Assembly: GCA_001724265.1 (NCBI GenBank)
Contig: MEDY01000111.1
Coordinates: forward strand, 1-64,000
Direction: 5' to 3'
Length of the DNA stretch: 64,000 nt
From: Rhizaria sp. SCN 62-66
Lineage: Eukaryota
The position numbers and the translations under genes are program-made. Position 1 is the first letter of the stretch, and each line of letters opens with the position of its first letter. This document shows, in pieces, positions 1-22,556 of this stretch. The notes below the pieces were generated by a model. That model saw only the letters and a program-made list of their open reading frames with translations. It made no database searches and had not been told where the DNA came from.

Positions 1-918
1 GCCGCCGCCGCTGCCGCCGCCGCCGCCGCGAGCTCGGGCTCCGGCGGCGGCGCGGGCGGCGGCAGCGGCCGCGGCGCCGGCTCTGGCGGCGCGAGCGCGG
101 CGGTGGGCGTGAGCGCGGCGGCCGCAGCGGCGCTGGCGGCGAGTGCTGAGCCCGTCGACAGCGGACTCCAGCTGCACAAGGGTCTGCTGGCGCTTGCTGC
201 GGCGGCGGAGCGTGAGGCGGCCACGGTTGCCAGCGCAATCAGCACTTATCTCTTGCCTCATCCAGCGCCTGTGGCTGCGAGCGCGTTGCAGCAACAAGGC
301 GGCGCGGTAACGGCGATGAGCGATAGCGCTTCGGCCGCCGAACAGCAGCAGCCGCAGCCGCGGAGTGCCGTGACGTTCTCCGCGGGCGGCTTAACTTCTT
401 CCGTTGGCGGCCTGACTTTCGTGACCCCGCGCGTGGTGCTTCCCGCGTTGGCGACGGCCCTGTCCGTGCCCGCTCCCGGTGCTGCCTCTCGCGCCGCGGC
501 CGCGGCTGCGCGCGCGCGGCTGATGCTGCTGCCCGGCGAGGCGGCCGCGCGCGTGCTGGTGCCTGTGCCGCGGCTCCGCACGGCGGCCGAGGTCGCGCTC
601 GTGTGGCGCGTCAAGGTGGCGCAGCGCGCGGCCGCCGCGGTCGCGCTATCCCACTATAGCGCGAGTGCCAAAGAGCACAAGGATGCGAGTGGCAATGACG
701 TCAAGAGCGAGGCTGACGCGGCTGCTGGTGCTGTGAAGACTGAGGGCAGTGGCAAGGTTGAGGGTGAGGGTGTTGCTGACAAGAAGATGAAGAGCGAGAG
801 CGACGCGGGCGCTGACGTTTTGTTGCCGTCATCCTCGACGGGCTCATCCTCGACGGGCTCGAAGGCAATGAAGGACAGCGACGACGCTGACGACGACGCT
901 GACCGCAAGGGGCGCGGC

Positions 919-982
<64 letters not shown>

Positions 983-1131
983 CGAGCGCCGGTGCCAGTG
1001 CACTGAGCCCCAGTAGCGCCGGCAGCGCGCGTTCGCGTAGACTCGCGCTCTCGCCCTCGTCTTCGTCGTCGACTCTGCTGGCACATTCCCAGTCGCAGTC
1101 TCCGCGCTCCCTGCGCGTGCCCGCTCCCACA

Positions 1132-1172
<41 letters not shown>

Positions 1173-3480
1173 TAATAACAACAGCAACGCCACTGTGAGC
1201 GATGGCGCTAGCTCATCGAGCGCGTCGACCACGGGCTCTGTCGCTGCTCCCGCTGCTGCTGCACCTGCGCCCGCGAAGCGCGACTCCCCGCCTTCGCGGT
1301 GGGTGATGGAGCCGCCGCCGTTCGCGCTGCAACCCGCGCCGCTTCCGCTGCACCTGCTGCTGCCTCTGCCGCCGGCCGCGCGCGCCGCGTCGGCCGCGCT
1401 GTTGCCAACTCCGTACTTCGGCACCGTGCTGGGCTCGGCGCTCGCACAGGCACACCCGGGCGTCGGGCTCGATGGCACCGCGGTCGCCGCGCCTGCGCAG
1501 CTCGCCGCTGCCGCCGCCGCCGCCTCGGTTGCCGCCGCCGCCGCCAGCGCGCCCATCCTCGGGCCCGGCGCAGGCTCGGCCGCGGGCGACGCCGCCGTCG
1601 CGGGCGCGGCCGGCGCGTCGCCGCTCGCCGGCTCGGCCGCGGGCTCCGGCGCCGGTGCTGGGGCCGCCGCGGGAGCTGGTGGCGCCGCGGGCGGGGCGGG
1701 TGGCGCGGGCGGCGCGGGCGGTGGATGGGGCTGGGGCTGGGGTTGCGAGGACGACCTCACGGCCGCCTACGCCGCCACGGAGCCCGCGTTCCCGGTGACC
1801 GCGCGCAGCGGAGGCGTCTGGGGCAAGGTCGGCGGCGCGGCGGCTGCGGTCGAAGTGTCGCGCGCTCTGTTAGGCCTTCCGCGTGGCCCACACGCCGCCG
1901 TGCGCGCTCCACTCGCTTCTGCGTTCGCTGCCACAGTCTCAGCGCCGGACGCCGAGGGCGCCTCTGCGACCAACGCCTCCAGCGTGTGCTCTAGCTCTGC
2001 TGCCGCGACCGGCACAAGGGCGAACACGAGCTCTAAGGGTCGCACCACTGCAAGTCATGACTACGACGGCGCGCGCACGGTACCCGCGGCGACTGAGGCC
2101 GACGCCGCCGCCGTGGCCGCCGCCGCGGCGTCCGTCACCTCCGTCCTCACGGGCACTGGCGTGGTCGCCAACGCTGCGGGCAGCGTCGCCGGCGCCTCGG
2201 GGCCCGACGCTTTCCTGGCGACTACGGCGCACGTCGTCGCCGCCGCCGCGACGGTGCTGCCGCTGGCGCTGCCGGGCACCGCGTCCGCTGCCGCCAACGC
2301 CGCTGCCGCGTCCGCCGCCGCGCAGGCTGCCGCTGCTGCCGCGGCGGCGGCCCAGCCTCGAGGCCGCGGCATGGTCGCCGCGCGCGGCACCGCCGCCGCC
2401 GCGGCCGCGAACGCCGCCGCCGCCGCGAGTGCCGCCGCTACCGCCGCTGCGACCGCTCGCGCGGGCGCTGGCGCTGCTGGCCGTGGCGGCGGCCGTGGCG
2501 GCGCTCGCGCGGGCTCCGGCGCGGGCCGTCTCGACGGCTTCGGTGGGCTCGGCCTGGGGACGGACCCGCTCGCGCTAGGGCTGGGGTTCACGTTCACGCC
2601 CTCCGCGCTGGGCGCCGCCGACACGGGCGCCGGCGAGGCCGACGGCGGCGGCGGCGCGGCGGGCGAGGGCGGCGACGCGGCGGGCGGCGCGGGCGACGGC
2701 GGAGAGCCGGGCCCATTCTGCTACTGCGGCGGCCCTGCGTACGGCGAAATGGTCGGCTGCGAAAACGTGGCGTGTTCGCTCGAGTGGTTCCACTTCGCCT
2801 GCGTCGGGCTTGAAACCAAGCCGCGCGGCGCCTGGTACTGCGTCAACTGCGACCCCAAGAACAAGCGCAAGCGCGGGCCCAAGGCCGGCGCCAAGGCCAC
2901 GGCCACCGCGGCTGCCACTGCGGCAGCGGCGGCCGCGGCGGGCGCTGACGTGATGCTGGCTGCGCCGCTGCCGTTGACCGGTGCCGCGCTAGCTGTCGTC
3001 GAGGGCGCAACTGCTGCTGACTCCGCTGCAGCAACCAACGGCAGCGAGGCAGCTGCCGCGGCTGCGGCTGCTGCGGTTGCAGTGACGGCTGCGGCGCTCC
3101 CATCCGTTGTCACGAGCATTAGCGACTCTGCCGCGCCGTCCGACGCAGGTGACTCTACCGGTCTCAGCGGCGCTGAGATGAGCACGGACAGCACTGGGCT
3201 GCCGGTTGTCGGTGCGGGAGCGCCTGCGAAGAAGAAGCTTGGCCGTCCCCCGATGCCTGAGGCTGTGCGCGCACTGAAGCGCGCGCGCAAGGCGCAGGGC
3301 CTGACGGGCCCGCCGCCGCAGGAGGAGCTTGAGGCGGCGCACGCACTCGCGCTGCAGCAGGAGCAAGAGCAGCAGCAGGTGTAGGTAGCTACAGCGATGA
3401 TGCAGCAACAGCTGGCGCAAGCACAGTTGCAGCACCAGTAGGCAGGTTTCGAGAGCAGTAGCATGAATACTCAGCAATGA
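1..3480 (+). CDS. ING-family PHD-finger chromatin protein, Ala/Ser-expanded, 5'-partial. Ends at TAG 3384 under the standard code, or at TGA 3480 if TAG is sense.
   Basis: Frame is open from base 1. ING-type PHD finger FCYCGGPAYGEMVGCENVACSLEWFHFACVGLETKPRGAWYCVNC at ~2716-2850, followed by the NLS-like KNKRKR and an AT-hook-like KKKLGRPP at ~3229-3252. The Gln-rich frame continues through TAG 3382-3384 and TAG 3439-3441 to TGA 3478-3480, where AT-rich spacer begins. Confidence 0.85.
922..981 (+). repeat. (AGC)20 coding microsatellite, poly-Ser
   Basis: Perfect AGC run, in frame within the ING-like CDS. Confidence 0.95.
1135..1170 (+). repeat. (AGC)11-AGT coding microsatellite, poly-Ser
   Basis: AGC run followed by AAT/AAC poly-Asn codons. 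Confidence 0.9.
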
Positions 3481-3771
3481 AAACGTTTAATATGACTCAC
3501 AAGGATAATAACTTATGCAATACACACCTAATCCATATACTTCACTCATCCTATGTGGTTTTAAAACTTTGTTGTATTTGTCTGATAGTACTAATAAGAA
3601 TGAATTACACGTTCAATCATATAAACAACTCTTAAGAGCAGCTTGCGTACATCACAATAACACTTAACGGAATTAAACAATAAACATAGACAAAGCACTA
3701 AACTCGTCAGACTTTGAAGACACTACTATAAACAAAAAATAGAAACATATGTGCCATTTATGACACTTGCT

Positions 3772-6700
3772 TTACCATTGCTCGCCTTCGACTGCAGGAG
3801 CAGCGGGTGCGTTGCCGGCGTTGTTGCCGACTTCAACGTTGTTACAGTTGGACTCCTCGGTTAGGGGTGACAGCAGCATGGTGGACTTGCGACCCATCGT
3901 GGTGCGCCTGCGCCGGCAGTCCACGAAAGCCAGGGACACGCGCCGCGGTTGTCCCTTAGGCACCTGCATGTTCGCGCTCATGGCGTCACCGTCACCTGTC
4001 GCGGCAGCAGCTGCGTGCGCAGTCGCTCCTGATGCAGCCGCTGCAGTGCCGGACGCGGTGTGCGCGTTAGCGCTAAGCACCGACGCGGGACTGCAGAGGG
4101 GCGAGAGTTCGAGGAACAGCTCGGCCCTGTTGCTGCTACTGACGCCGACTCTAAGATCACTGTAGTTCTCGGCAGCGACTGTAGCCGTCTCACATGCGGG
4201 AGAGGGCGTTGCAGGAAAGCTTGACGGTGAGTCGAGGCATGCACCAGCCTGCAGCATGCGCGCGCGCGCAGCAGCGCTTGTTTCGGTAGCACTCGATGTT
4301 GCAACAGCAGCGGCGCCAGTGGTCGCGTTGCGGTCCGTGTGCTGCGTTGGAATGGCAACATCGTGCGCTAACGAAGTCAGCGCCGACCACGTGTCGTGTC
4401 CGACAGCATCAGCATCGGGTGCGCTGTCGTTGTTGTCAGCGCAGTCGTCGTCAAGCTCAAACTGGTGAAGTGCAGCCGCAGCGGCATTCGCAGCAGCGCT
4501 GTCGTTGTCAACAGTCAGTGCAGCATCATCAACAGTGGCATTAACGATGGCATTGGCAGCCTCAGCGGCAGGCGCAGTCACATCGGCAACATCATCAGCA
4601 GGGTCAATAGCAGCAGCATCACTGAGCACGTTGCTTTCAGTCACGGTGTTGTCGCCACTGCTGGTCGCACTGGCGTCATCGACAGCAAACGCGTTGAAAT
4701 CGCTACTGTTGACGCTGAAGTCAGCAAACGTAAACCGACGACGGGGCCGCAGCTGCAGGCGCTTGTCACCATTCTGCTGCTCATGCTCCTGCGCTAAGGC
4801 AGCCTGTCCATTCCGTGCCGCGCTGCCGAACCCGACAGAGTGGGCAATGCCAACGCTCAGGCGGCGCACGCGCGCGCCCACGGTCACGGCACTGACGCTC
4901 GCGCCTTGCGTCACGACGCGCCACGCGAGCGCCGCGCGCCGATTCGCCTCGCTGTACACGGCAGCGACGCGGGCAAATGCGGGCGCGGTCGCGTCGCGTG
5001 CAGCAGTCACGGTTGAGGCCGCACTGGCGCGTGCAGAGAGCAGCGGCATGAGAACCGTCGTCGACACGCGAGCACGCACAGCGGCGGCGTGTTCCGGTGC
5101 CAACGTAGAGGCGGCGCGCCAAACCAGCGCGGCGAACAGGACCCAGCGATAGTGGCGGGCGACCCAGTCCAGCGGACGCAGCGCGCGGTCGCCAGCGCGC
5201 GCCACGGCCACAGTCGCGCGGCGGACACTGCGGGCACAGTGGCGAACTGACGCGGCGGTGGACTGGGCAGTCAGCGCAAGCTTGCGGGTGACGGTGAGAC
5301 GAGCGCCTGCACCAACATTGGGAGCAGGGGCAGCAGCTAAAAGAAAAGATCATAATGAATGCAAATCAGAGGATGTTAGAATTTAGTGAACATGAATAAC
5401 GTGCATAGGATAGGATAGTAGTCGTAATGGTGTTTTGCGTACCAAGAGTGGCTGCAACAACCTCAGCAGGCGGCGCAGAGTGCGAGGCAAAGCCGGCGCC
5501 ACTAGGGGCAAATGTGAAGAGCGGCCGCGAGGGCGGCGGGAGCAGGCTGTGCGCGGCGGGGCCGATAGAGCGCGCCGTCAGCGTGGCAGCGGCATGGTTG
5601 CTAGACAGCACAAACGCCAAGAGCTCGCGCGCGGAGTGCTCCTGTGCCTGCTGCAGCGCCAGCGCCTTCATGCACACGACGTCAGCGGCGACAGCGGAGA
5701 CGGCGGAGCCCACAGCCGCCACAGCGGCATCAGTGGCCAGGCTCGCGTTGCTGCGCGCGAGACCGACAGCGTTGAGCATCAGCGCCTTGGCGGTAGCGAC
5801 GTTAGCGCCAACGCTGATGCTTCCGTTGTTGACGGCCGTTGCCACGCGCAGCGCGGCGGTGCACGCAGCGCCCGCAGCGGCGCCCGCGGCGGCGTTGGTC
5901 AAGCCCGTGTACAGCGCGTCCGCCGCGACCGCGATGCCGGCGCCCGAGCTGCCGCCCAGCGAGCCGTTTGCGGCCGCGGCAGCCAGAGGGGCGGCGGCGG
6001 TGAGCACAGCGGGCAGCACCAGGCCGAGCGAGACCGAAGCCGCTGCGGACGCCGCGCGCACCATAGCGGACGACGGCAGTGCCACGCTGGCGGCGGCGGC
6101 GCTCACGCCCGCGCTGGAGACAGTGGCGGACACGGCGCCGACACCGGCGGCGGTGGCGGTCGCGGCCGTTGCAGCGGCGGCGGCGGCGGGGGAGAGTCGT
6201 GCAGTCAGTACGGCTGCGGCTGCGGCGGAGGAGGCCAGGTGCCGCGCCGCGCCGGTCGCGCCGGGGACGGCGAGGGCCGCGCGGGAGACAACCTTGGCGA
6301 GCAGCAGCAGCGGCAGCAGCACGAGGCGCTGCAGACGCAGCAGGCGCGGGAGCAGGAAGAGGAAGGGGCGCGTGAGCGGGGACAGCGCGGCTGCGGGGGG
6401 GAACATGTACAGCAGCACGGGCAGCGCGCGCTTAGTCGTGGCAACCACGGCTGTAGCATTGGGTGGAAAAAGGAGCGATGTTAGCAAGGAAAATGATTTG
6501 TAAAACATGAAGTGATAAGAAATCTTACGCGTTGATGCTTGATGAGAGGTTCGACGTACAGGGGGCGAGCGCAAGCGCAGAGTGGCAGTGCTCGATCACG
6601 AAGCTCGTCTGCCTTAACACAAGCACGGCGACGGCACGGAACCGCGCTAGCGCGAGCAGTGCCTGCTTGAGCGGCGCGCCCGCAGCGAGCGCGGCGGCGG

Positions 6701-9458
6701 CGGTGGCGCGCGGGTGGTGCAACGCGGTCCAGCACGCGGGCACTGTAGCGCGAAGGTAGAGCAGCGCCATGGACACGCGCCGCAGCAACCGCACCGCGGC
6801 CCAGGCCTCGCGGCCGCGCGCGTACAGCTGTTGCAGCGAGGGTGGCAGGAGCAGCAGCAGCGCCGGCACGCGGGAACGCGATCGCGAGCGAGAGCGAGAC
6901 CGTGAGCGTGAGTGGGATGCAAGGCGGCGCCGCTTGTCTTCGTGCTCGCAGGCAGCTGCGTCGTCACTGGGGGCGCTGTGGCGATGGCTGTGGGATGCGG
7001 GGCGAGGCGGGACAGCGTCAACAGCGGCATTGTTGTCATTAGTTAAGGTTGGAGTGAGCGGAGCAAGGGATACAATGTCATTCTCTGCATCATCACTGTC
7101 ATTGTCGTCGTCTGCGGCGTCATCGTCAGTCTCCTCGTCCGCATCGGCAGTCTTGGTCCGGCGCGCAACGGCACCGCTGCCAACACTGCGGCGGCGGCTG
7201 TGCGCAGTCACGACGCTGAGCCGGCGGCGGCCGCTGCTGTTGCTGCCCGTGTACGACAGACGGCCGCTGGGGCCGTGGCTGGGGCCAAGCGCCCCCACCG
7301 TGTCGCCGTCCTCCTCTCCGTCCTCACCGTGACCGCCAGTAGCGTTCGCCTGAGACTTTGTGGCGTATGCAAGGCCGCGGACAAGTGCAGCCCGTGCCGC
7401 ACCGGCAGCGGCGGACGCGGCGGCAGAGGCGGCGCGCGCGGCGGCCAGCGATGCGGGTGAGGCGAACACGTTCTTGACGAAGGCGCGGACCTTCGCTGGC
7501 GACCGCACGGAGTCCAGCGCGGCGGCCACGGCGGGCCCACCCCAGGCCGACGCCGCGGCAACCGCAGAGGAGACCGCGCCGCCCGCCGTCGCCGCGGCAG
7601 AGGCGGGCGCGGGGTGCGGCGTGGCCGGGGAAGACGGTGCGAGGGAAGAGAGAGGAGAAGAGAGCAGAAGCGTGGTCTTGTCAGCGCCGATGCTTGCATC
7701 ACCAGCAGCGCCGCCCGAGAGGCCTGATTCCGGAGCGGCGGCGGCGGCTGAGAATTGTGAGAACTGCGAGAAGGCGGAGCAGCACGGCGACGGCAACGCT
7801 GGCAGCGATTGGCGTTCGCGATCGTACTGAGTGGTCTGCTAAGGCTGCTGTTGCTGCTGCTCCGTGCAGTCAGTCTCAAACGCGGTGAGCAGCGATGCAG
7901 GGTCCTCCGCGTCATCGCTCTGCGCCATAGACTCCGTCGTAGCAGCTGAGGGCCCAGAACCAGAATGCGCCGCAACCGCGGGAGCGCTGGGCACAGCGGC
8001 CGGGGAAAACGGGGTCGCAAACCGAAGCCGGCTGCCGTGCTACTGCTTCAGAGCGTTCGCGGCGCTCACCGCCGTGCTTGCACTCGCAGTCACATGGCTG
8101 TTGCTCAACGGTTCATCATCAGAAATTGTGCTTTCGGCATGGCCCTTAGATGGTGTAAGTACCTGCGCCGGTTGGGGCGACATAACGCTGAAACTGCGCT
8201 TACGCCGTGCACTCTTGCGCTTCGCCGCGCTCTCGCCTCTCACCGTGGGCTTAGCAATGGGCGTGGGGGCGGGCGACAGCGCGCGCAAAGCTGCGGCGGC
8301 AGCGGAGCTCACCGCTGAGCTCACTGCAGCCGCGGCGAACGCGCCGCCGCGCCGCAGCAGCGGCGACGAGTGGCTGTACAGAGCGCTCGCTGCGCCCGCG
8401 GTGGCGGACGCGGCGGAGGCGAGCAGCGACCCGGCCTGCACCGGTGCAAGCGCAGGCGCGGGAGTCACCGTCATGGGTTGCGTCGCAGTTGCAGCCGCCG
8501 TGGCGGTGGCTGTGGCGATCGGGGCGAGAGGGGGGCGCGTGCGGACGGGGGTCGATGGAGCCGCACTAAAAATGTTGCTGTGCTGAGGAGTTGACTGAAC
8601 GGCGTTCACTCGCACGGCGGTCACGGCGGCAGCCTCTGCAGCGGCGACGGCTTCAGCGGCGGCAGCGGCGTCGGCTGCGGCCGAGGCAGCGGCGAGAGCG
8701 ATGGCAACCGAGCTGTAGCAAGTTCTGTTGTCATTTTCCGACACAGTCTTAGACTCGATAACAGCGTCGTCAGTAGTGCAGGCAACTGTCGGCATTGCGT
8801 TGAGCGCAGCACTGCAAAGGTCACTGGTGTTGCCGGCATGGTTGTTGCCCAGAGGGCTGCTGTAGTTGTTGTTGCTGTCGTCGTTAATGGCGGCTGTGTC
8901 AACATCATCAGTGCTATCAATGGGCACATACATCACGTCGTCATGATTAGCGCCAGGATCAGCCACTGCAGCAGAGTCAGCCAGTGCACACACGTCTTTG
9001 CCTCCCTCTTGGCTCTCTGTGCTGCTCTTGCCGTTCGCGGCCGCTGCGTCGTCGTCGTCGCCGTCGCCCCAGAGCACCGCGAAGGACGACAGCATCGCGG
9101 TCACGCGGCGGCTCGAGCGGCGGCCCTTCTTCGCAGAAGCCGCGCTGTTGTCGCCCATCGTAGAGGGCGTAGCGCGGGGGTGGGGAAGCGCGAGGGGAGC
9201 GGGACTGGGCAGGCCGGCGCCTGCAGTAGCAGACGCGGGTGCAGTTGCGGAGGGTGTGGCAGTGCGAGCCTTGAGCGCGAACGAGGCCGGAAACGGGGAA
9301 AAGTGGTGTTCGGGTTCGTGCCGCTTAAACACTGGCGAGAAAGCCTTCCGCAGTTCCGCGGTGTGTGGCGTGCGGCTGAGACCCATGCTGAGACCGAGTC
9401 CGGCGCCGGGGGCGGCTTCGTTCTCGTTGGAGCTGCCCAGCTGCATGCGCGCGTCCAT
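3772..9458 (-). CDS. Large uncharacterised low-complexity protein with several hydrophobic segments (~1823 aa if the two in-frame TAGs are read through). Exons 9458-6560, 6450-5443, 5336-3772.
   Basis: ORFs 8040..9458 and 6525..7796 are in the same frame and separated only by TAG 8042-8040 and TAG 7841-7839. Introns 6559-6451 (GTACGT...GCTAAC...TACAG) and 5442-5337 (GTACGC...TTTTAG) join the downstream ORFs in frame (both phase 1). Ends in TAA at 3772. Contains an RS-repeat and hydrophobic stretches such as WVLFAALVW. Confidence 0.65.
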
Positions 9459-10020
9459 CTTTGTTAGCTCACAGAAGGGCGTATCAAGGGCTTATGGTTA
9501 TGTTTTTCTCACCAAACAAATTTAAATCTAGGGTAAAATAAGGTAGCCCAAGAAACAGTGATATCGGGTGAGTTTATATACCGTGGGAAGTGAACGGACA
9601 ATTAGGTGAGATCGAGGAAACGCGCTCATGTGATGGTTCCTGTTATTCAGCAGCCGCGAAGTTAAACATCCGTCGTTAGAAAATCAAAAGACATATCATA
9701 ACTTTCCGTTATTGATGAAATACATAGATATAATTATTTTCGCTATAAAATGTGATCATATGAGGCAGATAATCGAAACGCTTGTCCAACGGCTAGATCG
9801 CTTCGGTCAGGCGAGTTGACATACAGTATTTGTTTTCTTACATGTACGTCAACGCTACAGTTGTTGCCGGACTTGCACATCATTTTTGACATAGGTTTTC
9901 GATGAAACATAAATATAATTGATTTTTCCTGATTGCTCAAGCAACAAAATTTAATATAATTGTATGACAATTGTTCTGGCGTTTCTTCAATGGCTTGAAC
10001 AGGTTTGACCAAGTCTGACG
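9459..10020. promoter_or_regulatory. Divergent AT-rich intergenic region, probable bidirectional promoter
   Basis: 562 bp between head-to-head start codons at 9458 (-) and 10021 (+). No specific motif identified. Confidence 0.45.
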
Positions 10021-11488
10021 ATGTCATCAGACGCGTCATGGATTCGTTTTCTTACTGGTGGTACTGCCTCATGTCTCGCTGAAACTGTTACTCTGCCGGT
10101 AGACACAGCAAAGGTACATTATATATCATGATAACGCATATTATTCATTTGCCGACCCGACGTCCTTGCGTGCGTATCCGACATGATGTCAGGAGTCACT
10201 TCAAGTTGGCGAATGCATCAATCTCCACAGACTACTTCTCACCTCGTCGTTGAATCATATTCAAACTTTGTGCAAGTTCTGTTTAGGTACGCTTGCAAGT
10301 ACAGGCAGCGTTGGGTGCGCAGGGTCCGCGCTACGCAAGCGGCTGGGACTGCCTGAAGAGCGTCGTCAAGCACGAGGGCCCCAGCGCGCTGTTCAAGGGC
10401 CTGTCCCCGGCGCTGATGCGGCAGGCGTCATACTCGTCGTTGCGTATAGGTTTCTACGAGCCCATCCGCAACGTGCTTGCGCCAGGCACCGCTGCCAAGG
10501 ATATCTCGTTTGCCAAGAAGGCGATCGCGGGCGGCACCGCGGGCGCTGCGGGGATTGCCATCGCTAACCCCACCGAGCTCATCAAAGTCAGGTACGCAAT
10601 ATAGGAGCATTAACAGGTGATAAGAAAGACCATAGTGCAATTTGGCGCGAGCATACTTAACCTAGTGTTTACACGCTCATGCAACTTATCCTTGCTGATA
10701 TTATCTAAAATCTCCCCAGGATGCAGGCGGACAAGACCGGTCTGCGCTACCCCAACGGCGCCGTGCGGGCGCTCGTCTCTACTGCGCGCACTGAGGGCCT
10801 GCGCGCGCTCTGGCGCGGCGTCACGCCCAACATGCAGCGCGCGTACATCGTCAACGCGGCCGAGCTTGCAACCTACGACCACGCCAAATCCATCCTCATC
10901 TCGGCGCTCTCGTTGTCGCCGACGAGCGCGATCACCCACGTGGCGGCGTCTGTCGCGGCCGGGGCCGTGGCAGCGCTGTGCTCGCAGCCGGTCGACCTCG
11001 TCAAGAACAGGCTCATGAACCAAGCTGCCGCAACGACTACGGCGGCTGTTGCTACGCACAGCAACCTCGCCAGCGTTGTTGCTGCTAATCTGAATTGCAA
11101 CTCTGGAAGCGTTATCCTTAACGTCACAACAGCTGCGCATCTCGCCACCGCAACGCCGCTGCGCGCCACCAGCGTCGTCGCCGCACTCCCCGGTCTGGCC
11201 ACCGTTAATGCATCCCCGCCGTTTCCCGGCGCTGCGACCAGTTGTCTGCTGGCGACCGGGCGCGCCCCCACAGCAGTGGGCGTGAGCAGTGCGGTCGACG
11301 GTGGGGTGCGGTATAATGGTATGCTCGACTGCGCGGTCAAGACCGTGCGCGCGGAGGGTGTGGCGGGGCTCTACAGGGGAATCCTGCCGTACAGCTGCCG
11401 CATTGGGCTCTTTTGCGTGGTGATGTTTCCCGCGTACGAGCAGCTGCGCGCGCTGGGCGAGTGGAGCGTCGCGAGGGAACGGCTGTGA
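10021..11488 (+). CDS. Mitochondrial carrier (SLC25), uncoupling-protein/UCP4-UCP5-like, 388 aa. Exons 10021-10113, 10287-10591, 10720-11488.
   Basis: Splicing restores three carrier signatures: PVDTAK|VRLQ, PTELIKVR|MQ and PVDLVKNRLM. UCP-type PNMQRAYIVNAAELATYDHAK is present. Introns 10114-10286 (GTACAT..TTTAG) and 10592-10719 (GTACGC..CCCAG). Stop TGA. Exon 1 is absent from the ORF track. Confidence 0.92.
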
Positions 11489-12504
11489 GAGAGTACAAAG
11501 TTGCGATTCTTTGGTAAAAATAGAAAGATAGCAAAACTTCAAAAAACGTAATGAGTTTATACAATTTTCGTCTGTTTGCTCAAACAGTTGTTCTAAGTCT
11601 GAATTGTGTGCATATCAACTTGAAAATATTCCGATGCAATTCGGTGCAATCAAAGGATACAAATCTTAAGCAAGCTGACATATGGATGTGCTAATAAAGA
11701 AAGAAGAGACGGGGTGTAAAATATAAAATACATTTTAACGCGCCAATCCTCTTGACAACTCTTATTCGAATCAAAAGCCTAGGTTTACGGTGTTATATCC
11801 TTAATCTATATTGACCCGTCAACACGACGCAATCATGTATGTAACAGTAGCAAGTTGGCGTGGAGTCGAAATAGGCTGCTTTGTTGCATCCAAGCAATGC
11901 CCAAAACTAGAATCGCAGAGCCAAGTCAACGGCAGCACTACATAAGATAGATGCCACTGTTTCAGCGACATATGGCCCAAAACATGATCTAATGGAGGTT
12001 TAGCAAGGTGGGTCGGATCACCAATTTCAAAGTGTACACTTGAGAAACGATGATCTCCGAAATTTATCACACGACATATCATGTCAGCATAGATCCGACA
12101 CCTGAAACCGCATTAATAACTTGCAAGACGCCACTAAAAGTTTGACAAGAGTCTCAAACTGTGTTTTAGGAGGAGTGCACTGCAGGCGGTCAGCGACGTG
12201 GCACGGTATGCATTTCTTAAGAAGATACACACACCACAAGGTCCATCAACAAAACTTTGAGTACGATGTCCGGATTGAAAGTTACAGAAACTAACATCTG
12301 CTATTTTTACAATCTTATACAACTCGTTTTCAGTGCCCTACAGGAAACTCCTTCGTAGTCATCGCTTGAGTGCGCGGCCCTGGAGCGCCCCGCTTCTCCC
12401 ACCCTCTACAGAAACAGTTTCAACGCCTTTTAGAGCCCGCTCCTCGGAGCACGCACGCTGATTGCCCTAGCGCCTTCACATCTGCGCGCACGCGCCTGGA
12501 CAAC

Positions 12505-15500
12505 ATGTTTCCGTCGTCGTCCTCGCCGTTCACCAGTGGCGGTGGCGCTCCCGGTCACGGTTCCTCAGCCGGTGCCGGCACGGGCACTCTGTCGGCCTCC
12601 AGCAGCGCGCGCTCGCTGTCACAGCTGGCGGGACCGCACCGCGTGGGGTCGCTCAACTCTTCTCTGCTCTCAGCTCTTGACACGGCCGCCGATGTCGTCG
12701 TCTCGTCCGCTTCCGCGGCCGCCTTCACGCGCCCCCCTGCCGCTTCTGCTGCCACCCGCGACGCGACGGTGACGGCTGACGCCTTCGCTGGGCTGCTCGA
12801 CGGCGATACCAGCAGCGACTCCCCGCCCATCCGCGCCGTCCCCACCGCGCCCCCCGGCCTAGCAGGCGCAGGCGCGGTCACCGCAGTCGGCGGCAAACGG
12901 TCGACCGCGCCTGCCGCGCCCGCCACCACTGCGCAGTCAATAGACGCGACCGCGAACGCGGCTGCGGGTGGCCGTACGTCGGGCCCGTCGAGCGGGGCGC
13001 TGCTGTCGGCGCTGCCGCTGCCCGTGTCGCCCATGGTTGCCGCGTTTCCATCCAACCTCTCGTCGTCGCGGTCATCGCCCGTCATGCAACAGCAACAGCA
13101 GCACGATAGCGGATATAGCGGATATAACCAGTCTGCCACTGTGTCGAGAGGGAGCTCAACTTCAGTTTCGTTCAACACCAAGCAGATCCAGCAGCAGCAG
13201 CAGCATCACCAGGTTGGCTTTATGCACCCGCTACCGCAACAACTGCAATTTCAGCAGCAGCAGCAGCAGTACCAACCGCATTTGAACAACGCGATCATTG
13301 TCAACAGTGATCTCGGCTACTCTGCGCAGCCCGCGATCGACTACGACTTCGACTCGGACGCGCACCTCACCGACGCTAGCGTCACCGACGATGCGGTAGC
13401 AACAGGCGCAACGGCGGCGGCGGCGGGTGTGATGACGCGCGCTGAGCAGCGCGCCGCCGCGGCCGCGCGCAAGGCGTCCAAGAAGCTCGCGCAGGAGCAG
13501 AAGACGCGCATCCAGATGGCGGGGCTGAAGCTCATGTTCCTGTTGTTCCTCGCGGCGGGCGCGATCCCCCTGCTCTACCTCTGGACCGACGCCGTGTACG
13601 CGGCCGAGGTAGCGCGCTTTGTGCCCGCCCAGTGCATGGTGGCCACCATTGCACGGCGCAACGTCACCGTCCACGGACTGTGCCCCGACACGGTCAACTA
13701 CCTGTTCGACGTCGAAGTGTTCCTGCCTCTCGAGTACGGCATTGCTTTCCCCCAGGAAGCCTGCTCCGGCAAGCGCCTCGTGTGCTACGAAGGCGACGGC
13801 GCGGTCGAGGGTGCGCCGCCCTGCCGCTCCTGCGAGCCCAACACGATCCACGGCTGCAGGCTACCGCTCGCGCGCGACCCCACCATCATGGATCACCTCA
13901 CGCCCGGTACGTCTTGTTTTCTGTCATAACAAATATTGGTGATCTAATAATTTTTTTTGACTGTACTTGATTCATGAGTTGTATATTCTCACCAATTTTG
14001 CTTGCAACTCTATCACCTTGTTTATCTCCAATTTCACAGGCACCAACGTCGACTGCTGGCTGTTTAAGCACTCCCCGTCTCCCGCGGCGCCGCGGCCCTT
14101 TTTGGCGAACCCGGAGGACATGACCGACTACCCGCGCCGCTCGCTCTGGTTCCTCGCGCCCGTGCCCGCCGTCGCCGTGCTGCTGCTGTTCGTATTCTTC
14201 TCCATCTGCGAGGCTGGCGGGTTCGGGCTCGCGCTGCGGGAGCTCAAGCGGCGCTTCTGCGCGGCCTGCTGCGGCTGCCGCTGTTGCTGCCGCTGCTGCC
14301 GTCACCAGGGTGGGAGCGATGATTCCGCCGACGACAAGGCCGGCCACAGGCACGAGCACCATCATCACCATCACAAAAAGCACGGTAAACGCGGTGACGA
14401 TAAGAACGAGCCCTTGCTGATCGCGCACACGAGCGCAGGCGACGCGCCCCCTGGTGCGGCCAACGCTGGCAGCGCTGCCAGTGGCGGCGGTGGGATTAAG
14501 CTGAAGACCCGTCGCCCGTCGTGCGCGCAGAACGCGCTCATCACCGCGCAGAGCGCCGGGGCCAACCGTGCGAGCGTTGCCGTGTACGGTGGCGAAGTCC
14601 CTCAGTACGACGGCAACAGCAGCTACGGCAACGGCCGAGTGACTGCTAGCAACACGTTTTCCCACGGCCACTACGTGCCGCCGCCGCTGCCCGTCATGAA
14701 CAACAACATCAGCAACGGTGGCAATGCGGGCGGCATGTACGTGACCGTGCCAGCGACGCCGTCCCGGTCCCCGTCGCGGACACCGTCTGCGCAAACCTCG
14801 CGCGCCGCCACGCCACGCCGCAACAAGTCCGCCGCGCACTCCGCAGCTCACTCCGCCGCGCACTCCGCCGCGCAGTCGTCGTCGTTCGCGCCGGTGCCAA
14901 GCCCAAGCTTTGCCCACAGCCAGCTGACGCTCGGCCCATATGCTCAGCAAGGACAGTTTGCGCACTACAGCAACGACAACATGCCGCAACAGCAGCAACA
15001 GCTGTACGCGAGCTATGGTGACGGCAGCAATGCCAATGCCAGCGGAGCTGTGTACGCGATGTTCGCAGCCGCCCCCGTGACGGCAACCCAAGGTCTCCTG
15101 CCCCCTGCGAGCCCCGCGCAGGGCCATGTCCGCAGCTCGGTCCACGGGCACAGTCCGGCGCACGGCCGCAGCCCCGCGCTGGGCCCCGCGGCGACGGCGG
15201 CGACGAATGTCGCCCCGCAACAGGCCGGCCGGAGCAGCAGCCGGTCCAGTGCGCATAATAGCGCACAGAACAGCGCGCGCAACAGCACGCGCGGCAGCGC
15301 GGCGCCGTCGCCGCTTATGGGGCCCGCCGCGGGCGCCGGCGCGGTGGCAGGGATGCCCGCGCCGCTGTTTGCCCGTAACAGCCCCCAGCTGTCGTCGGCG
15401 GTGCCGTATCAAATCAGCTTCAATAACCACAACCTGGGCTCGAACGTGAACATGATTAACAGTAGCAGCGATGGTGTTGGTGGTGGTGGGAGCAGGAAAG

Positions 15501-15742
15501 GCGGCATGTCCACGAGGCCCGGATCCTTCACCGGGCTGCCCCAGTCGCATCTGCACTCGCAACATCAGCAGCAGCAGCTGCAGCAACAACAGCAGCATGG
15601 GTTGGGTGCCGGCGCGCTGCTGCGGCGGCCCGTGGCCGGCGGGGTTGGACCCGGGCTAATGGTTGCGCTGGGGCCCTATGACCACGAAAACGACCACCAC
15701 GAGGACGGCGACGGCAACGGGCCCGTCGGCGGCTACTATTGA
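12505..15742 (+). CDS. Two-TM membrane protein with a Cys-rich loop and long disordered termini, ~1034 aa. Exons 12505-13906 and 14040-15742.
   Basis: TM1 LMFLLFLAAGAIPLLYLW, a loop with multiple Cys and an NVT sequon, TM2 LWFLAPVPAVAVLLLFVFFSIC, then CAACCGCRCCCRCC and a His run. Phase-1 intron 13907-14039 (GTACGT..CACAG) joins ORFs 12370 and 13967. Stop TGA. Confidence 0.75.
14828..14875 (+). repeat. 12-bp coding tandem repeat encoding SAAH-SAAH-SAAH-SAAQ
   Basis: TCCGCCGCGCAC-like unit repeated four times. Confidence 0.7.
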
Positions 15743-16392
15743 GCCATGCAGGCTGAGTGTACAGATGTTGTGTAAAGTTGCTACACGACTGGGTATAATG
15801 TCGGAACTACGTATTTGAATGTTTTCCTGTATATATTTGTATGTTTAATGAACTGTCGTATGCGAAAAAATGCGATATGAGCAGAATGTTTGCTGCTATC
15901 GCGCTTCAGCTCCCCTTGAGCACCTCTGGCCCAGTGTGCTACCAATCGGCTGTGGTCCAAAGCTGGGGGTTGGGGTGAGCCTCTCGAGATAAGAGGGGAG
16001 TGATTGAGAAACTCGTTCAATATAGATACCTATTTAATTCCGAAAAGACATTGATATGAAATTGTTATATCTTCTTTTATGTCGTTCAAGCCTTCATCTG
16101 ACGCGCGATATCCTGCTTGATTTGTTTGCCTCTTCGCTCTCCTTGCTTTGCTATGACGTAAAACCTACGCCACCCTCCAAAGAGCGCCATCCCGCGCAAG
16201 AGCGAGTGCCGTCTATCTCCCGCTCTAGCGCGCGTCTTGGCACGTTCTATAACTGAGTCAGTGGTGTATTGCGTAAGCGTCTCCGCTTCCAGACCCACCA
16301 GCAAAGGAGGGCTTCCTTCTCCGTCAGCAAAAACACCATAGCTCCGGTTACTATAAGGCTCTAACAGCGCCAGTCAATCCTCACACCGTACA

Positions 16393-19300
16393 ATGCTGGA
16401 CTGGGAAGCGATTGCGCTGCTGCTGCTGGCAGTGGTGCTGGCGCTCGTGCTGTTCTGGGCGTGCATGTCCCGCCGGCGCAACAACTCTCACGAGCGCCTC
16501 ACGTCGTCGAATCGGAACCAGCTCGTCAACTCCAAGATGTGGCTCGACGGCCGCAACCCCGCGGACGCACACCTGCCCACCAACGCCACTGCGGCCGCGC
16601 GTCGGCGCAACCGGCGGCCCGCGCTGTCGCGCGCCGACTTCGAGTTCCTGAGTGAGACGCACCGCGCCTTCGTCCGCGGCATCCACACACACCTGCACTC
16701 GCTGCGGGCGGAGCGCGCGCTTACGCAGACGCTCGCCTTCATGGGCTGGCGCTCGCGCAAGTTCTACGCCTTTGTGAACGACCCGCTGATCAACAATACG
16801 TACGTTGAGTGGGCTGACCCGGACTCGCTGCGGCCCAAGGTTACTACACTGCTCACCGTCGTCATGATGCGCACCCGCATCGAGGTCACCGCGCGTGCGC
16901 AACAGGCCAAGATCTCGCTCGACGACCCCGCGCCGTTGCTGCCCGGCACGCGCCGCCCAGCCGCGCACTTGGTGCCTTCTTCCATGGCCTCCGCCGCCCA
17001 GCCACAGTCGTCGTCGCTTTCGCCGTACGCGCCGCCGGAGCAGCCACTGGCTGCGTGCGTCAACAACGCGCCCCCCGCGTCGCCGTGCTTCGACCATTCG
17101 TCACCCGCGCGCCAGGCCGCGCTGCGCTCGCTGTTGGTCTCGCTCGCGCACCCGCACGTGCTACCCACCTGGGACCTGGGGTTCTCTGCCGACGGAACCC
17201 TAGCGTTCCTGCTGCGGCCCTTCGCGCCGGAGGGCTCGCTGCGCGACTTGCTGTGGGACGTCGAGGACCCGACGATGGCATACGCGGTCAAGTACCCGCG
17301 CTTTAGCAACAAGGTGCCCGCGGTGACCGGCAAGGTTGAGGAGGACTTCACCACTGGCGGGCTTGCAGACGGCCAGTTCATTGCAGACCCCGGCGCCGAG
17401 CTGTCAGACGACGACGATGACGACGAGGACGAGGACGACGCCGAGGAAGAAGAGGGGGGCGACGCGTTGCTGCGCGGCGGCAGCTCGCGCAGTGACATTG
17501 GCAATAACAGCCACATCAGGGCTTATCCACTCACCGTCGCGCAGATCGCGCGTTACGGTCGCCAGGTAAGCTATTTTACAAAGCACATTTAACCACGAAT
17601 ATCATCATGAAGTAGATTCATTTTCATGATTTATATTTTGTTATTAAATGTAATAATACCTCACCAGATATATTTATTTATTTAAACTGATTCTGTTCCC
17701 GCACGCACCTCAATAGATCCTGACCGCGATGGTCTACCTGGAGCGCGCCGGGCTGGCCCCGCACTCGGTCCACGCGGGCAACATCATCCTGCACAACGGC
17801 CAGTGCCGGCTGACCGACTACGAGGCCACCGCGCTGGGCGTGCCCGCGCAGCACCAGGCCCGTCTGCGCCGCGCGGGCCCCCACGACCCCGCCGTCGTGG
17901 CGTTCGCGTCGGTGCTGTTCGAGCTGGCCACGGGGCAGACCATGCCCGTGCCCAAGTACCCGCGCTTCCCGCCCATCGAGCGCCTCGCAGCCACGCACTC
18001 CAAGATCGCAGACGTGCTCAAAGTCATCTTCTCCCCTCGCCCCGCGACGGTAACCGGAAGTGACTCAGCTGCGACCAGTGCGGGGCCTGCACCCGGCACT
18101 GCTGCGCCGCCGTATGTGCGCCTGGCCGACCTGCTGCAGCTGCCGCTCTTCGCCGAAGTGGCCGATGTGGCGCCGCTCCCGCCGCTGCCGCCGGTGGGTA
18201 CGCCGCTGCTGACCGACGCCGAGGCCGCGGCTATGTACGGCGGCGCGCACGGCCAGCTGTACAGCCCCGACGGCGGGCTCGCGCGGCCCGGGCAGGGCGG
18301 GCTCGGCTACGGCGCAGACGGCCGGCCTGCACGCGTGGACGTGTTCCGCCACCGCGCCTGCCACGCCGTCGCCGCCGCTACCGCGCTGGGCGCCGCCAAG
18401 ACGCTCCCGCTCGCCGCGGGATCGCTGCTGAGGTGGTTCCCCGCCGAGCGCGAGGCCTATGCGACGTGGCGCGCCGCCAAGGACAAGGAGAAGGGCCGGC
18501 GCGCGGCGGCCGCGGCGGCGGGCGGCGGCGGGAAGAAGAAGGGTGGCGGCAAGCGCGGCGGCGGGAGCAAGAACATCACCGTCGCTGCGCGAGCGGCCGC
18601 GGGCGAGGCTGATAATGATAGTACGAGCGACGGCGACAGCGACGACGACGACGAGGAGGTGGAGGACGAGGTAGTTGCCATGAGCCGCCGTGCTAAGGCG
18701 TACGCGCGCGCGCAGAAGGGTCAGGGCCACATCGCGATTGACATCGACGACCGCGACGAGGACGGCGGCGGCGCAAAGGCCGGCAAGAAGTCTGCGAATG
18801 CGAAAAAGAGCGGCGCCAAGAGCAGCCGCAAGTCCCGCGCTGACCGCGACGAGGCGCGCATCGAAAGCCAGGCCGCGTTTCCCTTCGCCTCGCTGTATGA
18901 TCCCGACTCTGCCGCGTCTAACCCCGCTGGTGCCAGGAGCTCCAACAGCAGCAGTAGCAGCTCTGCGGCGGGCCGCGGTGGGGTTGACGACGCGTTCTTC
19001 TCGACAGTGCAGAACGTCGTCGTGCCCAAGGGCCGCCACGGTCCGGGCCAGAGCTCCACTGGCGTCGCTGTGACCACCAAGAGCGCCGCGGTCAGCCGGC
19101 CCACGGCGGCAGCCGCGGCGGCCAATGCGGCGGCGGCGCGCGCGGCGGCTGAGGCCGAGGCCGCGGCCGAGCAGTACGAGCGTAGTATCATGGCCCAGGC
19201 GCAGCAAGCGCAGACTCAGAGGCGCGTGCAGTTCAGGCAGCCTGTTGCCGCAGCCGAGGAGGACGAGGAGGACGGTGGTCATGCTGCTGCCTCTGCGGCC

Positions 19301-19855
19301 TCGCCAGCCAAGGCTCAGAGTCCGGTTGCGCAGCCGCAGTCTCAGCCCAAGGCTCCTGTGCAGGCTCATGTTCGGTCTGAGCCTTCGAATCAGAGTCAGC
19401 GCCCTCGCCCATCTCAGACGCAGCAAGCGCAGACCCAGATTATCGCTCCTGTCCCCGCGCCCGTCGCCAGCGAGACTCCTGTGCCTGTCCCTGTAACTGT
19501 AACTGCGCCTGCAACAGCGAAGGCTGAGGAGGAGGACGAAGTCGCAGTCCGCCGCGCGCGCGCCCAGCGTTTCAGCACTGCCGCGCTGCCTGGGGCGGCC
19601 GCCAACGCCGCCAAGGCCGCTGCGGCCGCCGCGCGTGCCGCCGCTGGCGATGCCGCCGAAGCCGCCGGTCTGCCGCGCAACGCCAGCGCGGCGGCCGTGG
19701 CGGCGGCTGAGGCGGAGCGCGCCGCTAGGGCCCGCGCTACTGCCGCGCCGGCGGGCGCGCTGGCCGGGGCTGGGTTTGGCACTGGCAAGGACGAGAAGGG
19801 CCGGTGGCGCGCGACAAAGGACCTGTTTGACGACGTTGAAGACGACATTGTTTGA
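16393..19855 (+). CDS. PXK/Slob-like pseudokinase with an N-terminal transmembrane anchor, ~1103 aa. Exons 16393-17565 and 17717-19855.
   Basis: Motifs LAHPHVLP, LRPFAPEGSLRDLL, IARYGRQ|ILTAMVYL, HSVHAGNIIL..CRLTDYE and FASVLFELATG resemble the PXK/Slowpoke-binding-protein kinase-like domain; HRD and DFG are absent. Phase-0 intron 17566-17716 (GTAAGC..AATAG). Stop TGA. Confidence 0.82.
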
Positions 19856-20332: not shown

Positions 20333-22057
20333 TTAGTTGTACGTACGGTTGAGGTGCGACATGTAGAGCGAGTTCTGCTCCGCGACGAGCAGCTCATCAG
20401 CGTAGTTGTGGCGGAAAACGTCCATGACGACAGCGGCGTCACTCTGACGCACCTTGTACGCGTTGTAGTTGCCCTTCTTGACCTGCGCAAAGTCCCACGT
20501 GACGACGTGGTTGCCCGTCGACGTCGCAATCCACTCCTCCTTGCTGTTGGCAAGCGTGCCCGTGTTGAACATCGCGGGCGAGAACGAAACCTTGTCGATC
20601 TTGAGCCGCAGCATATCCGTCGGCAGCAATGACAGCTTGATCGGCTTGGGCTTAGCCACGCCCATGCGCGAGTCGAAGCCGGTGCGCGCCTCGCCGTTCT
20701 TGGCGCCGTCCATGGCAACGTTCATGAGGATGAGGTACGTCTCGCACGTGGCGAGGATCCACTGGCCGTCCGCCGTGACGCTGATGCTCTTGACGGCGTT
20801 GCCGAGTCCGGGCAGCACGGTCTTGCAGTAGTTCTTCTGCAGCTTGTTGAAGAGGCGGATCTCGCCCGTCTTGCTCGCCACGGCCAGGTAGCCGCTCTCG
20901 GTCGTCGCCGCGTTGCTGAGCTGCACCTTGGTCGCATACGAACACTCCTCGGCAGTCTTGTTCTTGCCTGACACACGCGGGTCAATCGAGAACACGGCGT
21001 TGTCGCTGACGCCGACGACGAGGTTCTCGTTGCTGACCTGCGCGTACTTGGTGCGCGGTGCGAGCGAGTTGAACTTGACGCCCTCGCGGCCCTGCCACTC
21101 GTCGATCACCGTGCCCGTCTCGATGTCGAGGTTGTAGATGCGGTCGCGGTTGTCGTCGTCGAGCATCAACAGCTTCTGGTCCGCGTTGTGCAGCTGCATC
21201 TGTGCCGGCGTGAGAGTCGCCCCGTCCTTGCCCTTGACCTCAGGGATGCGGTTCAGGTACTTCAGGTCGCCGTCGCTCGTGTGCTTGAACATGCCCAGCT
21301 GCGACCCATACGCTGCGAACGCCACGCCGCGGTTCATACCGGCGACCACCGAGGAGATCTTGCTCTTGCGTGCGGACCGCGTGAAGCCGTTCGCGCCGCC
21401 GTCCTCGTCGTCATCGTCGTTGCCGCCCGCGAGCGAGGAGCGGATGCCCGACGCCCGGCTCTTGATGGGAGTCTGCTTGAGGCCGAGCGACCGGTCCTCG
21501 TCGGCCTCGTCCTCCTCCTGGCGCTGCGCCGAGCGCTCCTCATCGTCGTCGTAGTCGTCCAGCTGCGCCGCAGCGGCCGCGGCGGCGGAGGTCAACGACG
21601 CGCGCACAGTCTTACGGTTCGAGTAGCCGAACGCGGGCGGCGCTGCGTCGGTCATGGGCACTGCGACGGCGCCCTCGGTCACCCACGAGCGGTCGTCCTC
21701 GCCGACCTTGGACTCGAGGTCCGCGCGATACGCTGTCTCAATGATGCCGCGCGCCACGGCGGCACGGAACTCGTTGGCCCGCTCCGAGAGCGTGAGCGTG
21801 AGCAGCAGACGCTCCCCATTCTCGCGCGTGTACAGCCACTCGACGGCGTTGGGCTTAGGGAAAGACAGCGCGCATGACGTCTCGAGCGCCTGCGAAAAGA
21901 GCTCCTCACCCTTGGGGCCCGCGACAGAGATGCAGAACTGGAACTGCGCGTCGCCGGTAACCGAGGCGGCGACGGCGCCGAGGTCAGTGGTGCGGCCGTC
22001 CTCGAACTCGACCGAGAGCTTGCCATCCACCGTGATGAGCGCCTTGCTCGTGGACAT
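20333..22057 (-). CDS. VID27: VID27/CYPRO4-family protein (vacuolar import and degradation 27), 574 aa
   Basis: C-terminal propeller motifs IYNLDIETGTVIDEW, FSIDPR, TTESGYLAVASKTGEIRLF and KTVLPGLG..ISVTADGQWILATCETYLIL. Stop TAA. Confidence 0.88.
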   Translation of the reverse strand: MSTSKALITVDGKLSVEFEDGRTTDLGAVAASVTGDAQFQFCISVAGPKGEELFSQALETSCALSFPKPNAVEWLYTRENGERLLLTLTLSERANEFRAAVARGIIETAYRADLESKVGEDDRSWVTEGAVAVPMTDAAPPAFGYSNRKTVRASLTSAAAAAAAQLDDYDDDEERSAQRQEEDEADEDRSLGLKQTPIKSRASGIRSSLAGGNDDDDEDGGANGFTRSARKSKISSVVAGMNRGVAFAAYGSQLGMFKHTSDGDLKYLNRIPEVKGKDGATLTPAQMQLHNADQKLLMLDDDNRDRIYNLDIETGTVIDEWQGREGVKFNSLAPRTKYAQVSNENLVVGVSDNAVFSIDPRVSGKNKTAEECSYATKVQLSNAATTESGYLAVASKTGEIRLFNKLQKNYCKTVLPGLGNAVKSISVTADGQWILATCETYLILMNVAMDGAKNGEARTGFDSRMGVAKPKPIKLSLLPTDMLRLKIDKVSFSPAMFNTGTLANSKEEWIATSTGNHVVTWDFAQVKKGNYNAYKVRQSDAAVVMDVFRHNYADELLVAEQNSLYMSHLNRTYN

Positions 22058-22556
22058 ACTGTGCTGTGGGGAATAAGTGAAAAAAATACGTGTGAGTGAT
22101 TGGAAGACAGTGTGAGTAAAAGAGAGAGCAGGTTACTGGGAGTGATTTGGATGGGAGTCCACAAGGTCATTCAGTGTGCTGATGACGCGAGAGGACGAAG
22201 GCGAAACATTTGGTTAGTGGGGGTATAAAGCAAAATAGAAATCGGAATTACATTATATAAAGTAGTGCATATCCAGTTAGAGTCAAGATCACAGTGTTCG
22301 CGGATAAATAGTGCTTGTATTATGGTCTTTGGAAAAGCTCGCGAACGATCGAACCGTTGGTGGTGGACCAACCAACTAACGGCTCGGTTCGCAAAAAAGG
22401 CATCGAGCATTCGTGGCCACACACTGTTTTAACATAAAATGTTATTATAACTTAAAGCCAATGCATATTCCAAGGGGAACTGTCTCCGCAGATAACAAAT
22501 TTAACTGACTAGGTCTCCTAGACTAACGTATCTCATCAAATCGCTTAACAGTCCAC

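Follow-up and report, generated by a model that had tools for sequence, protein, structure and literature searches.

In-frame TAG codons in two adjacent genes of a wastewater eukaryote may reflect rare use of UAG as a sense codon

Two neighbouring genes at the start of a 64,000-nucleotide stretch of eukaryotic DNA (contig MEDY01000111.1, positions 1 to 64,000, filed under Rhizaria sp. SCN 62-66; hereafter the window) each carry two in-frame TAG codons. One, the PHD gene, encodes a PHD finger and runs out of the window at its 5' end; the other, g2, is an orphan gene that converges on it from the opposite strand. We give an even chance to a reading in which the organism uses UAG as a rare sense codon, probably for glutamine (Gln) as in NCBI table 15, and in which the PHD gene ends at the TGA at 3480. 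The TAGs are real, the g2 frame continues through both of its own, and the window holds no in-frame TAA or TGA and no terminator that is a TAG. From this we infer that ribosomes pass the TAGs, which residue they insert there, and that the PHD gene behaves like g2.

The organism would then read UAG rarely as sense and terminate at UAA and UGA. Translation of the PHD gene would pass the TAGs at 3382 and 3439 and stop at the TGA at 3480, adding 32 residues (X-VATAMMQQQLAQAQLQHQ-X-AGFESSSMNTQQ), and g2, read through both of its TAGs, would give a product of 1823 residues. The inserted residue would most likely be glutamine, which would make the code that of table 15 (TAG as Gln; TAA and TGA as stops), and the decoder could be a tRNA-Gln with anticodon CUA or the near-cognate tRNA-Gln(CUG).

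Results

The g2 coding sequence closes through two TAG codons

The joined exons of g2 (9458..6560, 6450..5443 and 5336..3772) amount to 5472 nt, or 1824 codons from ATG to TAA, and the only internal stops are the TAGs at codons 473 and 540. The frame from 9491 to 6525 holds 989 codons and is likewise open save for these two triplets (8042-8040 and 7841-7839). A codon model fitted to the window's HECT open reading frame (ORF) of 9606 codons held the g2 frame through both TAGs and shifted only at the two AT-rich introns, by the expected amount; the donor of the first of these introns was put at 6559 by the frame change from 0 to 1 together with closure of the coding sequence (CDS). The in-frame score is 16.9 for the 66 codons that separate the TAGs (-28.1 and -7.0 in the other frames) and 96.7 for the 427 codons that follow the second one (-146.5 and -148.2). 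A separate gene downstream of the second TAG is unlikely, since GC content stays at 0.62-0.71 across the TAG region with no AT-rich spacer, and since no in-frame methionine was seen for about 400 residues when the translation past this point was read by eye. Unless TAG is read, g2 does not close as a CDS, which supports a sense reading of UAG.

The ORF of 472 amino acids (aa) that ends at the first TAG of g2 (P0154) is on record from six contigs. In a word-index search no relatives of g2 were found at 531-1691 aa, and at 30-530 aa the only match was the window's own 472-aa ORF. Two other data sets cover parts of the region, namely a contig assembled in a different study of 2025 (X4) and a polyA metatranscriptome run (X5). 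Set against these, g2 shows three indels upstream of its first TAG, all of them multiples of three. The same holds for all four indels listed in coding sequence (8556, 8713, 8839 and 12375, the last at the start of the gene at 12370), while none of the eight listed in AT-rich non-coding sequence (9503, 10194, 10233, 10258, 11541, 15803, 20298 and 22148) is a multiple of three. As the coding indels are all multiples of three, at least the first exon of g2 is under constraint, and the pattern points to a second strain, about 1% diverged, in the later study and to gene models under purifying selection.

The PHD gene has a glutamine-rich tail behind its first TAG

The frame-1 translation of 1..3480 runs through LALQQEQEQQQV, a stop, VATAMMQQQLAQAQLQHQ, a second stop, AGFESSSMNTQQ and a final stop. 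The initial annotation had described a TAG, a second TAG and then a TGA in this frame, with glutamine-rich codons continuing past the first, and both points are borne out: the triplets lie at exactly 3382-3384, 3439-3441 and 3478-3480, and 9 of the 31 tail codons (3385-3477) are CAG or CAA, the other two frames holding 2 and 1 such codons. The stretches just behind the 12 true terminators of the window, which make a fairer control for the tail, contain 0-3 in-frame Gln codons. GC content at the first, second and third codon positions of the tail (GC1/2/3) is 0.61/0.35/0.61, and in none of the 12 post-stop controls do both GC1 and GC3 reach 0.6. These two properties, the nine in-frame Gln codons and a GC1 and GC3 both of 0.61, are what sets the tail apart.

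On the codon model the tail scores 3.8 in frame against -22.7 and -5.9 in the other frames. This is below 92% of 178 true in-frame windows, above 99% of 356 off-frame windows and above 98% of 508 AT-rich non-coding windows. The GC content, taken in steps of 30 nt over 3351-3500, goes from 0.63 (3351-3380) through 0.50, 0.60 and 0.50 (3441-3470) to 0.33 (3471-3500), and then lies at 0.23-0.40; in the first two 48-nt pieces after the TGA at 3480 it is 0.31 and 0.29. The switch near this TGA is real, but it is not sharp.

The X4 contig is identical to the window over 3053..4782, both PHD-gene TAGs included, and departs from it elsewhere, for example by 21 letters in 9246-10813. Since the two assemblies are independent, the PHD-gene TAGs are not an assembly error.

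Introns and RNA

The TAGs could in principle be removed by GC-rich in-frame introns, a highly improbable explanation that would call on the 63-nt GT..AG stretch at 3379-3441 in the PHD gene and, in g2, on a formal intron (GTGAGC..TTAG) that measures about 231 nt. Such pairs do exist formally. Six in-frame GT..AG combinations would remove both PHD-gene TAGs, the five besides 3379-3441 being no better, the second TAG in each gene is usable as a YAG acceptor, and an in-phase GTG codon lies upstream of each first TAG. The initial annotation had dismissed the 63-nt candidate by comparison with eight AT-rich introns of 106-185 nt. The dismissal is upheld, on six verified introns that are indeed AT-rich and span 106-173 nt. 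These have a GC content of 0.28-0.42, the donor GTA[AC]G in 6/6 and, in 4/6, a CTRAY motif at a distance of 21-39 nt from the acceptor. The candidate at 3379-3441 has a GC content of 0.56, the donor GTGTAG and no CTRAY motif, and is thus unlike them in length, composition, donor and branch motif. For g2, the sole consensus-like donor upstream of the first TAG (8203) gives no in-frame excision when worked out by hand, and the stretch between the TAGs scores as coding. The donor consensus of the verified introns as a whole is very tight, GTA[AC]G[TCA], and 5/6 have C at +4.

The RNA comparison used assembled contigs. In X5, 54% of the sampled words of 2600-4100 were present, and the longest RNA contig on the PHD gene, which places this gene in the polyA RNA library, covers 2728..3307 and so ends 75 nt before the first TAG. 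Among the RNA contigs listed none bridges 3308-3480 or either g2 TAG, and among the joints listed there is none at 3379-3441.

TAG is rare inside genes and absent at their ends

Across the 18,577 modelled codons of the window (13 CDSs or ORFs) there are four in-frame TAGs, no TAA and no TGA, alongside 523 Gln codons. The 12 terminators, nine of which are firm and three of which, as ends of short ORFs, are provisional, comprise six TAA, six TGA and no TAG. If TAG usually makes up 20-30% of terminators, the probability of finding none among 12 is 0.07-0.014. A Gln codon directly adjoins three of the four TAGs on a background of 2.8% Gln (P about 7e-4), which fits an origin of these codons from CAG. 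A sense reading of UAG accounts jointly for the closed CDS of g2, for the glutamine context, and for a window in which TAA and TGA never occur in frame and TAG never terminates. It is mainly through the g2 TAGs and the 0/12 TAG terminators that the initial proposal of TGA 3480 as the true end of the PHD gene finds partial support, the composition of the tail alone being equivocal.

Several observations weigh against this reading. The four TAGs fall within a single pair of adjacent genes, both of them orphan and of low complexity (post hoc Fisher p 5e-4), none is found in any conserved gene, and the HECT gene carries none with its 235 Gln codons; such clustering would also fit a local cause, for example two genes in decay. 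No homologue was alignable across any of the four TAG sites in word-index, exhaustive representative and metagenome searches, so that neither translation of the TAGs nor the residue placed there is established by comparison. The glutamine context cannot separate reassignment from mutation, because CAG>TAG is the commonest nonsense route in CAG-rich tracts, and no tRNA gene lies within the 64-kb window. Nor does the composition of the PHD tail discriminate coding from post-stop sequence: 3 of the 12 stretches behind true terminators score at least 3.8 on the codon model, and the first 48 nt after true terminators have a GC content of at least 0.56 in 4 of the 12. These overlaps weaken the earlier argument that coding character ends exactly at the TGA, and the PHD gene taken alone makes a weak case for reading past its TAGs. 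A variant nuclear code has a low prior probability, and evidence that amounts to four codons cannot prove a sense reading of UAG.

Many of these points would be expected under the standard code if the four TAGs were recent CAG>TAG nonsense mutations, an explanation that the initial annotation had already raised for the PHD tail and that we regard as unlikely but serious. The PHD protein would then end at TAG 3384, having lost a dispensable, Gln-rich tail of 32 residues in one or two steps, and g2 would be a young pseudogene or encode only a 472-residue product, with its downstream part not yet decayed. The restriction of the TAGs to two neighbouring low-complexity genes would follow, as would their Gln-rich surroundings, where a single C>T makes a TAG. 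In the PHD tail the GC content (0.56, then 0.48) overlaps that of true 3' untranslated region starts, and its GC3 of 0.61 is lower than the 0.80 of the gene body; the ING-type relative loci mostly end about 5-10 residues past the finger, a long tail thus being no conserved feature, and recorded gene calls stop the g2 ORF at the first TAG (P0154). The same explanation requires two hits in each gene, all of them TAG, and must allow for 1351 g2 codons behind the first TAG that have acquired no TAA, TGA or frameshift and still close in frame over two introns to a TAA. It leaves the 0/12 TAG terminators unexplained, the TAGs are stable between assemblies of different studies and years, and the coding indels, all multiples of three, indicate constraint on the first exon of g2.

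Readthrough and editing

The standard code might also be kept with programmed or leaky readthrough, or with a UAG whose meaning is set by its distance from the 3' end, so that short and extended proteins would both be made. We consider this improbable. A TAG followed by C is a leaky context, and C follows both g2 TAGs; TAG is also the only stop involved. G, however, follows both PHD-gene TAGs, two serial stops would multiply the loss of product, the 1351 g2 codons would hinge on passage, and the absence of TAG terminators would go unexplained. Codes with context-dependent stops do exist, according to the excerpted text of PMC4967479.

Slightly less probable still is adenosine-to-inosine editing of UAG to UGG, giving tryptophan, as in filamentous ascomycetes. 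There, excerpts of PMC11156358 describe ADAT-type enzymes that correct premature UAGs, among them the tandem stops of PUK1, in some 70 genes, and the accessible portions of PMC11156358 and PMC10776026 report stop-loss editing of canonical UAGs that yields C-terminal extensions. The likeness to the present genes is close in outline. Otherwise intact genes carry in-frame TAGs in both systems, at times as a close pair, and stop-loss editing in the ascomycetes lengthens the C-terminus (PMC11156358, in the same excerpts). Editing is TAG-specific, which matches the four TAGs and zero TAA and TGA seen here, it hits a minority of genes at one or two sites each, and stop-loss editing would give exactly the picture of the PHD gene; the introns of the window, moreover, carry fungus-like CTAAC branch motifs. 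An ascomycete identity is not established for the organism, and the look-alikes of two of its proteins gave no placement. Editing would supply Trp rather than Gln, whereas the Gln codons that adjoin three of the four TAGs fit an origin from CAG rather than TGG. In minimum-free-energy folds the A of the UAG sits in a clean hairpin loop, where the A edited in ascomycetes lies, at just one of the four sites, a scarcity that does not fit the ascomycete pattern, and no 51-nt fold among the four does better than its shuffles (z -1.6 to +1.9). A U at -1 of the edited A, which is a feature of editing targets, is trivially present in any TAG. The absence of TAG terminators is unexplained by editing as well.

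The PHD finger and its resemblance to ING proteins

The Pfam matches to the finger, PHD and PHD-1st_NSD (Table 1), are both below the curated cut-offs. An exhaustive search of 1.84 billion representatives returned 4688 proteins at E<=1e-3, and in the best 150 of these the best stretches all fall over the PHD finger (query residues 1-113); 632 library proteins match the finger at E<=1e-10. The top match, P0004, is a five-PHD protein, with BLASTP identities of 43-52% to its PHD repeats. In a metagenome scan 22 loci were recovered whose matches are limited to query residues 1-64, which is the PHD finger, and no close relative was among them. The tail found no relatives either, in a word-index search at near lengths or among the metagenome loci and at least the 150 best representative matches, which were PHD-only.

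The finger FCYCGGPAYGEMVGCENVACSLEWFHFACVGLETKPRGAWYCVNC is 42-64% identical to ING-type fingers over about 30-60 residues, and, as in the ING family, a short polybasic stretch follows it. Two features differ. Most of the 11 loci whose ends were read stop about 5-10 residues past the finger, whereas here about 180 residues follow to TAG 3384 or about 210 to TGA 3480, and the 900 Ala/Ser/Gly-rich residues that precede the finger yielded no ING N-terminal domain. More precisely, Pfam gave no hit to that domain at E<=0.01 in residues 1-1127, and the N-terminus lies beyond the start of the window. As judged from sequence, the initial label "ING-like" would therefore be apt for the PHD finger only, and does not extend to the remainder of the 1127 visible residues. 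Ala, Ser and Gly are extremely abundant throughout the ORF, which holds perfect runs of (AGC)20 at 922-981 and (CAG)12 at 1134-1169, both encoding poly-Ser.

Other genes of the window

The window is eukaryotic, with a GC content of 60-85% in exons against 28-42% in introns and spacers, and it occurs in public runs of bioreactor, wastewater and activated-sludge metagenomes. Its genes are collected in Table 1. No Rfam family match was obtained within the window. Intron density is very low, and one exon measures 28.8 kb: the giant ORF runs for its 9606 codons without any intron or stop to its TAA, with an AT-rich spacer after it. We take its C-terminus (which includes LPSASTCSLTLVLPAYTS and KLRFAIES) to be HECT-like, which would make the protein a candidate E3 ligase of exceptional size.

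The closest look-alike clusters of the dynamin-family GTPase are bacterial dynamin-like proteins (Chloroflexota and others) together with plant and green-algal FZO-like proteins, and such a bacterial-looking GTPase is unusual in a eukaryote. Those of the VID27-like protein are clusters of Basidiomycota and Streptophyta. The look-alikes of these two proteins do not place the lineage of the organism. The VID27-like gene seems to be without the N-terminal and PH-like VID27 domains. About 430 nt upstream of it, on the same strand, lies a coding-like ORF of 190 codons (22557-23126), which may be a gene in its own right that ends in TGA, or else an upstream exon of the VID27-like gene.

Table 1 Features of the 64-kb window (positions in nucleotides of the window)
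Feature	Position	Strand	Details
PHD-finger gene ORF	1..3384 (first TAG) or 1..3480 (TGA)	+	Frame 1; 5' end cut by window start
PHD finger (ING-type)	~2719-2850	+	Residues 907-950; Pfam PHD E 0.0064; PHD-1st_NSD E 0.00075
First in-frame TAG, PHD gene	3382..3384	+	Context caggtgTAGgtagct
18 codons between TAGs, PHD gene, VATAMMQQQLAQAQLQHQ	3385..3438	+	Codon score -0.6 vs -4.5, -2.2 in other frames
Second in-frame TAG, PHD gene	3439..3441	+	Context caccagTAGgcaggt
Last 12 codons before TGA, PHD gene, AGFESSSMNTQQ	3442..3477	+	Codon score 4.3 vs -4.0, -4.1 in other frames
TGA, proposed true terminator of PHD gene	3478..3480	+	
AT-rich spacer common to the two convergent genes	3481..3771		GC1/2/3 0.29/0.35/0.29
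g2, orphan gene	9458..3772	-	Three exons; no Pfam family
First in-frame TAG, g2	8042-8040	-	Codon 473; aagcagTAGcacggc; ANALKQ-stop-HGS
Second in-frame TAG, g2	7841-7839	-	Codon 540; cagcctTAGcagacc; EQQQQQP-stop-QTTQ
g2 intron A (verified)	6451..6559	-	109 nt; donor GTACGT; CTAAC 30 nt from 3' splice site; acceptor ACAG
g2 intron B (verified)	5337..5442	-	106 nt; GC 0.34; donor GTACGC; acceptor TTTTAG
Other verified introns	10114-10286, 10592-10719, 13907-14039, 17566-17716	+	
Mitochondrial-carrier gene			Within window; modelled here
Orphan gene	12370-15742	+	Modelled here
Orphan gene	16357-19855	+	Modelled here
VID27-like gene	20336-22132	-	Modelled here
Dynamin-family GTPase gene	23306-25834	-	Bacterial-type dynamin-like; modelled here
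Giant ORF with HECT-like end	27598-56415	+	Single exon; 9606 codons; ends TAA
Ras/Rab gene			Within window; modelled here
1238-codon orphan			Within window; modelled here

Discussion

UAG-only reassignments that keep UAA as a stop are known in other eukaryotes, as the excerpted parts of PMC5304391 and PMC11687900 describe. Besides table 15 (TAG as Gln), these include Iotanema spirale (UAG as Gln), the rhizarian exLh (UAG as Leu) and phyllopharyngean ciliates (UAG as Leu or Gln), and they share with the code proposed here a sense UAG and a terminator UAA (same excerpts). Uneven use of UAG between gene classes is shared with exLh, where, in the excerpted text of PMC5304391, it is rarest in the ribosomal-protein genes. 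The present case differs in that UGA is also a terminator, that use is very low (4 TAGs against 523 Gln codons), and that no TAG stands at an alignable conserved position and no tRNA gene lies in the window. From the phyllopharyngeans it differs further in an organism that is not ciliate-looking, with GC-rich exons and spliceosomal introns of 106-173 nt.

Codes in which both UAA and UAG (UAR) mean Gln occur in Amoeboaphelidium, ulvophyte green algae, oxymonads, hexamitid diplomonads and many ciliates, according to passages of PMC5304391 and PMC2984419, and likewise turn stops that include UAG into Gln. Here, in contrast, TAA ends six genes, the HECT gene among them, and a general TAR=Gln code is ruled out by these six terminators together with zero in-frame TAAs in 18,577 codons.

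With rather less confidence than we give to the sense reading of UAG itself, we tentatively suggest an early-stage, UAG-only reassignment to Gln outside the ciliates, in an uncultured, GC-rich, intron-poor wastewater eukaryote that keeps UAA and UGA as stops. UAG would make up less than 1% of Gln-type codons and occur only in fast-evolving, Gln-rich, disordered parts of proteins. As far as the excerpted literature goes, nuclear codes that give UAG and UAA different meanings are rare, and the cases named there are one rhizarian, one fornicate and a few ciliates, in which UAG is already widely used.

If the TAGs were nonsense mutations instead, the two loci would be an ordinary pair of decaying orphan genes. 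Gene callers that assume the standard code cut short genes of the kind proposed here, and the 472-aa P0154 is probably a fragment of a 1823-residue protein. If the sense reading of UAG is true, its low-frequency use in poorly constrained Gln tracts would show the first steps of stop-codon capture, and the question of codon capture versus an ambiguous intermediate would become testable in an organism that recurs in wastewater data.

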